From Escherichia coli (lineage in GTDB: Bacteria; Pseudomonadota; Gammaproteobacteria; Enterobacterales; Enterobacteriaceae): a stretch of 64,000 bases of DNA. Positions 24,166-24,422 of the stretch are shown here, piece by piece. The notes under the pieces were generated by a model that ran no database searches, was not told where the DNA came from, and saw nothing but the letters and a program-made list of their open reading frames with translations. The stretch lies in assembly GCF_013122565.1 (NCBI RefSeq), contig NZ_CP053258.1; one strand, 5' to 3'. The first letter of the stretch is position 1, and the number at the start of each line of letters is the position of its first letter. The translations under genes and the position numbers were made by a program.

Positions 24166-24422
24166 TTGGTATTTACTTAATGCGTTTGTGAGATCCAGTT
24201 CTTGTTGCGCTCCTTTTATGAGTCATGCCATATAAAGTGACTGGCGCAGGGAGCGCGCAGGGGGCGGCCAATCGCCGCCGCCACCAACACCCGTGCAGTC
24301 TTTCGTTTCAAAGCAAAAACAATTTTTCGATCATATTTAAGCTACCACTGAACAAGCCTCATAACTCCATTTGCGCCATCCCTCCCCGCGCGCTAGCATG
24401 ATATTTCACAAAGGGAGGTCGT

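Follow-up and report, generated by a model that had tools for sequence, protein, structure and literature searches.

The 257 bp that separate copA from ybaP in the E. coli DNA examined here very probably represent a known allele, marked by the repeat TRIP1e, of a hypervariable Escherichia intergenic spot, and not a K-12 interval from which ybaQ has been removed. The stretch analysed (hereafter the window) is 64,000 nucleotides long, and all coordinates without further label refer to it. Three other explanations of the interval, namely a strain-specific deletion of ybaQ, its relocation and a small gene hidden in the interval, are weighed below with the evidence that bears on each.

The copA-ybaP interval and its parts

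The copA gene runs to 24165 and ybaP begins at 24423, leaving the interval 24166..24422, which is 257 bp long as the first-pass annotation had given it. That annotation placed a small regulator gene, ybaQ, at this position in K-12 and reported none here, while conceding that its picture of the reference might be wrong. It was right about K-12. In K-12, ybaQ (b0483, 342 bp, 113 codons; annotated in RefSeq as a HigA-family antitoxin) lies between ybaP (b0482) and copA (b0484) in an interval of 794 bp, so the suggestion that K-12 might have the same short interval falls away. The absence of ybaQ from the gap was also borne out, since tblastn with K-12 YbaQ (113 aa) gave zero matches at E<=10, and hence no HigA-family HTH antitoxin ORF, across the 64-kb window. 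For a RelE/ParE-family toxin, tblastn with HigB-1 of JNE23-011 returned only chance matches in the window (at most 20.4 bits, E at least 0.77), and not even a chance match inside 24166..24422. The absence of both ybaQ and higB is thus established for the 64-kb window. Because the toxin gene higB-1 is missing from the window as well, the missing antitoxin would be expected to have no consequence or cost.

We aligned five allele types, that of the window and four other E. coli alleles. The alignment with K-12 that the first-pass annotation had proposed shows copA, ybaP, chiX, ybaK and ushA in the same order and orientation in both; beginning with the second base of the copA stop codon the two sequences differ, until they rejoin 60 bp before the ybaP ATG, and these last 60 bp are identical but for one base. 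Between these points the K-12 interval holds three REP-type repeats and the orphan antitoxin gene ybaQ, whereas the window has none of these, and in our alignments nothing in the window corresponds to the stretch of REP units that follows copA in K-12, E. albertii and E. whittamii. The only match in the window to the REP-derived Rfam family naRNA4 is at 30976-31053 (minus strand), outside the interval. The copA stop codon is TGA in the window and at one further Escherichia locus (L013), but TAA in K-12, in the higBA alleles, in E. albertii and in most other alleles of cryptic Escherichia. The features of the interval and its flanks are as follows.

21661..24165, plus strand: copA, Cu+-exporting P-type ATPase, 834 aa (ORF list and BLAST to annotated E. 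coli copA)
24166..24203, plus strand: AT-rich spacer of 38 bp, specific to the TRIP1e allele, replacing the hairpin and REP sequence that follow copA in other alleles
24204..24298, plus strand: TRIP1e repeat as judged from alignments to other TRIP1 copies, internally deleted, 95 bp of about 265 bp left
24207..24256, no strand: dyad GCGCTCC (24207-24213) / GGAGCGC (24250-24256), 100% complementary (repeat search)
24244..24265, plus strand: tandem 11-mer GCGCAGGGAGC / GCGCAGGGGGC (repeat search)
24279..24283, no strand: junction of a 171-bp deletion at 24282/24283, ambiguous over the 4-bp CGCC microhomology 24279-24282
24299..24362, plus strand: spacer R1, 64 bp of ancestral Escherichia intergenic sequence (local alignments and BLAST of the E. 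albertii locus)
24363..24422, plus strand: ybaP 5' region, 60 bp, common to all alleles (conservation)
24423..25217, plus strand: ybaP, TraB/GumN family, 264 aa (Pfam PF01963, E=1.8e-43; annotated as ybaP in matching genomes)

The ybaP 5' region, which is identical or nearly so across Escherichia alleles, contains a -35-like TTGCGC (24371-24376) and, after a 17-bp spacer, a -10-like TAGCAT (24394-24399), followed by GGGAGG at 24413-24418, a good match to a Shine-Dalgarno sequence. The TTG of TTGCGC and the stretch CGCGCTAGCATG, which includes TAGCAT, are invariant also in Citrobacter and Salmonella. Because a sigma-70 consensus scan called no promoter at threshold, we only infer that the conserved hexamers and GGGAGG are the promoter and ribosome-binding site of ybaP. 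These elements in the last 60 bp are likely the only functional part of the interval.

Two observations concern neighboring DNA. The small RNA ChiX (Rfam sroB, 82.1 bits) is found at 25216-25299 on the minus strand, between ybaP and ybaK, sharing 2 nt with the ybaP stop codon, just as in K-12. Further along, between gsk and ybaL, strain 042 carries an IS1397 insertion (L056:35708-37056) that the window lacks, and the alignment of the two breaks at 30992-30994 of the window.

The truncated TRIP1e repeat

TRIP1 is reportedly among the intergenic repeats catalogued by Rudd in 1999. Between two and five copies per genome were found in 5,425 of 5,426 complete E. coli genomes, those outside the copA-ybaP gap lying between aqpZ and lysO, alx and sstT, dusC and mdtQ, and putP and efeU. 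The type that occupies the copA-ybaP gap, TRIP1e, has been described as a 265-bp element that begins 38 bp beyond the copA stop and leaves 124 bp to the ybaP start, and as present in 232 of 6,725 genomes (Li et al. 2024, Genes 15:236, PMC10888264). Both published distances match the boundaries 24204 and 24298 exactly. Moreover, 24204-24298 aligns to TRIP1e of NY1601, Ecol_316 and 042, to TRIP1a (aqpZ-lysO) and TRIP1d (alx-sstT), and also to TRIP1c. Judged by these alignments and distances, the segment is identified as TRIP1e, in the same orientation as the published TRIP1e copies.

The copy in the window is a deletion derivative and not an intact member of the family. Full-length TRIP1e is present in NY1601 and Ecol_316, each with an interval of 428 bp, and in 042, with an interval of 417 bp. 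Compared with these, the window retains 95 bp and not 265, in the form of a left arm of 79 bp (24204-24282) that is 100% identical to TRIP1e of NY1601 and a right end of 16 bp (24283-24298) that differs from it at one base. The remnant is 85-92% identical to TRIP1a and TRIP1d, and identity to NY1601 is likewise 100% over 24136-24240, from the end of copA into the repeat. At the junction NY1601 has 171 additional bases, flanked by CGCC. These 171 bp are the core for which a 'double-Y' structure is predicted, and the core helices of the consensus fold (columns ~20-190) accordingly have no counterpart in the window. Since the structured core is gone, the remnant would be expected to have no function.

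The 171-bp deletion was not found in the 5,426 complete E. coli genomes, in which all best matches to the junction consist of two pieces spanning 271 bp, and an exact-match scan of JGI metagenome contigs for the junction gave none. This deletion inside TRIP1e is therefore the only feature of the interval that looks strain-specific. In a GC-rich and strongly structured repeat it could in principle be an artefact of assembly or sequencing. Internal deletions of TRIP1 do have precedents. TRIP1b, the K-12 example, is 146 bp long and lacks 125 bp of the core (Li et al. 2024, PMC10888264), and our alignment of NY1601 with 042 shows that 042 has lost one copy of the tandem 11-mer (11 bp) and with it the right arm of the dyad. 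Set against the published TRIP1 types, the copy in the window is the shortest, and the deletion in TRIP1b, at 125 bp, is independent and smaller.

The GC-rich dyad gcgctcc...ggagcgc to which the first-pass annotation drew attention is real, with seven pairs in perfect complementarity, and forms the terminal hairpin of TRIP1. No change in the stem is seen among the five TRIP1 copies aligned (alignment columns 216-265), and this invariance of the seven pairs speaks neither for nor against a structural role.

An ERIC/IRU element was suspected at one point from the sequence AAGTGACTGG but was dropped, as the copies at aqpZ-lysO and alx-sstT together with the literature identify the repeat as TRIP1. 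At aqpZ-lysO itself, K-12 and 28RC1 carry TRIP1a in opposite orientations (L007:1435-1928 vs L009:1362-1818). The two elements are 90.6% identical over 276 bp; the 40-65 bp beside the element differ on both sides, and the outer flanks are 96.5% identical. The opposite orientations agree with the forward and reverse counts given by Li et al. 2024 (PMC10888264).

Coding and RNA potential of the interval

Five ORFs of 30 aa or more, all mechanical, overlap the interval.

24173..24271, minus strand: mechanical ORF, at least 30 aa (ORF list)
24216..24311, minus strand: mechanical ORF, at least 30 aa (ORF list)
24225..24401, plus strand: mechanical ORF, 58 aa, ATG start (ORF list)
24371..24472, plus strand: mechanical ORF, at least 30 aa (ORF list)
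24393..24812, minus strand: mechanical ORF, 139 aa, antisense to ybaP

The first-pass annotation had found no credible ORF in the interval and had rejected the one at 24393..24812. We agree, as this ORF runs antisense within ybaP and matches no Pfam family. The 58-aa ORF at 24225..24401, which that annotation did not mention, deserves closer scrutiny, because it bears on the possibility of a small functional gene in the interval, whether this ORF or a small RNA transcribed from what remains of TRIP1e. The ORF does begin with ATG, and its frame is open for 52 codons in full-length copies of the repeat, where it then ends. No Shine-Dalgarno sequence was found upstream of it, however, and a Pfam search of the 58-aa and 139-aa ORFs gave zero matches. 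Its C-terminal 39 residues, two thirds of the product, arise solely from the fusion of frames across the 171-bp deletion junction; the start codon is replaced by AAG in TRIP1a of K-12, and the TRIP1 copy of 28RC1 is put out of frame by a 1-nt deletion.

Of five TRIP1 copies inspected, four (including L002:2060-2218) have an open 52-codon frame (MPYKVTGAGSAQGAANRRRPLHP...) on the plus strand, which starts with ATG in most of them, again without a Shine-Dalgarno sequence. This frame is probably a chance product of GC-rich DNA.

At the RNA level, it has been suggested that TRIP1 may be transcribed (Li et al. 2024, PMC10888264). We compared full-length copies with the RNA motif TwoAYGGAY (Rfam RF01731, gathering threshold 43 bits), which consists of two hairpins with AYGGAY loops. 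The minus strands of TRIP1d (L008:1592-1757) and TRIP1e (L002:2145-2284) match the model over its full length at 36.6 and 31.5 bits, respectively, both below the 43-bit threshold, and TRIP1a of K-12 was not reported at E<=0.1. Of the two loops in TRIP1, one reads AUGGAU without variation and the second reads AGGGAY. When five TRIP1 copies were folded together with RNAalifold, the consensus contained 91 pairs, of which five show compensatory double changes, three of them in the AUGGAU hairpin. The TRIP1 paper (Li et al. 2024) does not mention the TwoAYGGAY motif. With few sequences and a score below threshold, we regard the kinship of TRIP1 with TwoAYGGAY as a lead and not a result. If TRIP1 does make a functional RNA, the truncated copy in the window would make this strain a natural deletion mutant for one TRIP1 core.

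The segment of full-length TRIP1 that matches RF01731 corresponds to the 171 bp missing at 24282/24283. The transcription suggested for TRIP1, the sub-threshold match and the compensatory pairs would favor a hidden RNA gene, but the structured core is the very part that was deleted here. Within the window itself, an Rfam scan of 23900-24700 found no match in the interval at E<=1 and none to TwoAYGGAY anywhere in the scanned segment, and the folding of 24166-24300 is unremarkable (z=-1.73). A hidden functional gene, whether coding or RNA, is therefore most improbable, and the interval 24166..24422 codes for nothing. Self-BLAST of the interval against the 64-kb window revealed no second copy of it, and an intrinsic terminator scan yielded one terminator-like site, inside copA and at chance level, with none evident for copA in the interval.

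Distribution and history of the ybaQ slot

Of the 5,426 complete E. coli genomes, 4,834 have ybaQ, at 4,838 places, and 1,266 have the higB-1 toxin gene; higB-1/ybaQ is thus complete in ~23% of the genomes, ybaQ is an orphan, as in K-12, in ~66%, and ybaQ is absent from ~11%. The junction of the window type (copA end, 38-bp spacer and start of TRIP1e) occurs in 357 of the 5,426, and roughly 60% of the genomes without ybaQ carry this allele. One of the 357 is strain 042, a standard phylogroup D strain and the only carrier whose phylogroup was checked, to which the window is 98.06% identical over 44.7 kb. The best match to 20 kb of the window (14000-34000) among the 5,426 genomes is ~97.5%. Given best identities of only ~97.5-98%, the source lineage is not closely represented among complete RefSeq E. 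coli genomes. In these comparisons copA is more diverged (95-97%) than ybaP-ushA (97.5-98.3%).

The absence of ybaQ at copA-ybaP is already in the literature, as Rousset et al. 2020 (bioRxiv 10.1101/2020.05.25.114553) describe ybaQ as a repressor of higB-1 and both genes as lost in phylogroup D; ybaQ was found to be essential only where higB-1 lies upstream, in phylogroups B2 and F. This report and the shared allele of reference strain 042 both weigh against a ybaQ that has moved outside the window. The 64 kb inspected are a part of the genome, and a few genomes do have two ybaQ places, two of them plasmid-borne. Nevertheless, YbaQ has no match within these 64 kb, and with 4,838 places in 4,834 genomes it is essentially a single-locus gene, so that relocation can be given hardly any credence.

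The first-pass annotation had proposed that the short interval might be a strain-specific deletion. This does not hold for ybaQ; the private 171-bp deletion removed repeat sequence and not ybaQ, and the allele itself, with TRIP1e, an E. albertii-like spacer and no remnant of ybaQ or higB, is common to the 357 genomes. A deletion that took ybaQ, with or without its flanks, from a K-12-like or higBA-like interval is suggested by the presence of ybaQ here in K-12 and 89% of complete E. coli genomes, by the description of the phylogroup D state as a loss (Rousset et al. 2020) and by the existence of true in-place deletions, such as that of VCSW7, where 27 bp of the ybaQ 3' end persist in an interval of 171 bp. 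However, between the copA stop and the point 60 bp before the ybaP ATG the window has nothing in common with the K-12 and higBA alleles, and it carries a 64-bp spacer that these alleles do not have. We thus consider such a deletion very unlikely, and the known TRIP1e allele of a variable spot remains the preferred reading.

The history of spacer R1 sets the allele types apart. The higBA-type alleles (JNE23-011, 'E. coli' E69 and E. whittamii) have no R1, and the spacer is cut to about its last 17 bp in the K-12-type alleles (K-12, VCSW7 and three cryptic Escherichia lineages, which have the K-12-type orphan ybaQ). Among species-representative genomes E69 gives the top YbaP match, with 91.4% nucleotide identity and a higB-type upstream region. 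The orphan-ybaQ allele of the K-12 type thus keeps ~17 bp of R1 that the complete higB-1/ybaQ allele lacks (L001:2658-2794 vs L003:2738-2869), and because of these ~17 bp it would not be a simple higB-1 deletion from the present-day complete form. Read from the alignments, the three allele classes point to a more tangled history.

We examined one genome per species with YbaP as query, obtaining 46 loci, of which 40 are from outside Escherichia; E. fergusonii was not included. At almost all of the 40 the 3' end of copA lies directly upstream of ybaP, and neither YbaQ nor HigB was found at any of them (Citrobacter, Salmonella, Klebsiella, Enterobacter, Trabulsiella and others), so the cassette would be an acquisition within Escherichia. 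In E. albertii there is no ybaQ and R1 is intact, the single case in which the whole spacer was seen outside the TRIP1e allele; the BLAST match of its locus begins at 24299, and R1 and the ybaP leader (24299-24422) align without a break. The E. albertii interval (NBRC 107761) is 265 bp and shares with the window these 124 bp before ybaP, but after copA it has a K-12-like hairpin and one REP, in place of the 38-bp spacer and TRIP1e remnant. In-place losses of ybaQ leave scars, as in VCSW7 and in E. whittamii, which has no ybaQ but has kept the higB-1 promoter palindrome, whereas the window is free of scars and has the whole of R1. Because the ancestral spacer is kept here and is missing from cassette-bearing alleles, the simplest reading is that the TRIP1e allele derives from one into which the cassette was never inserted, or was converted by such an allele; to this reading we give about even odds on comparative sequence grounds. 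The basis for the never-inserted reading is one outgroup species, E. albertii, and the reading conflicts with the 'lost in phylogroup D' of Rousset et al. 2020. It must also assume a long-lived polymorphism or recombination, because cryptic Escherichia lineages that are more distant than phylogroup D carry ybaQ. The wider proposal, in which the TRIP1e allele is a never-inserted higB-1/ybaQ slot that was kept or re-imported, the TRIP1 repeats are diverged relatives of TwoAYGGAY and the window carries a knockout of one core, is tentative and in our judgement somewhat less probable than its negation. Neither the 64-bp R1 link to E. albertii nor the likeness of TRIP1 to TwoAYGGAY appears in the papers on TRIP1e and on higB-1/ybaQ.

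Taking the TRIP1e-allele reading as a whole, the following course of events seems plausible. In enterobacteria outside Escherichia copA stands directly beside ybaP, and the higB-1/ybaQ cassette would have entered the gap within Escherichia. The window would represent the ybaQ-less form typical of phylogroup D, without a trace of the cassette, in which the copA stop is followed by the 38-bp spacer, TRIP1e, the 64-bp ancestral spacer and the presumed ybaP promoter and ribosome-binding site. Its empty slot either may never have carried the cassette or may have been regained through homologous recombination, the partner being an allele that never carried it. In the lineage of this strain a deletion at the CGCC microhomology would then have taken out the central 171 bp of TRIP1e, and with them the structured core, leaving 95 bp of non-coding repeat, and ybaP is probably expressed from the conserved promoter-like hexamers.

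As an already described natural variant, the interval is an ordinary finding of little import. It does confirm that some E. coli do without ybaQ and that annotations carried over from K-12 would be wrong at copA-ybaP; it also adds a further case of an intergenic hot spot in which a dispersed repeat and a toxin-antitoxin slot turn over, and the truncated TRIP1e could be used as a lineage marker. Compared with the higB-1/ybaQ type II toxin-antitoxin cassette, the window has the same chromosomal slot with both genes missing, as reported for phylogroup D, and retains neither the higB-1 promoter palindrome nor any other remnant of the cassette. In contrast to the wording of Rousset et al. 2020, our outgroup comparison suggests an ancestral spacer that was uninserted or restored, and not a loss in place.
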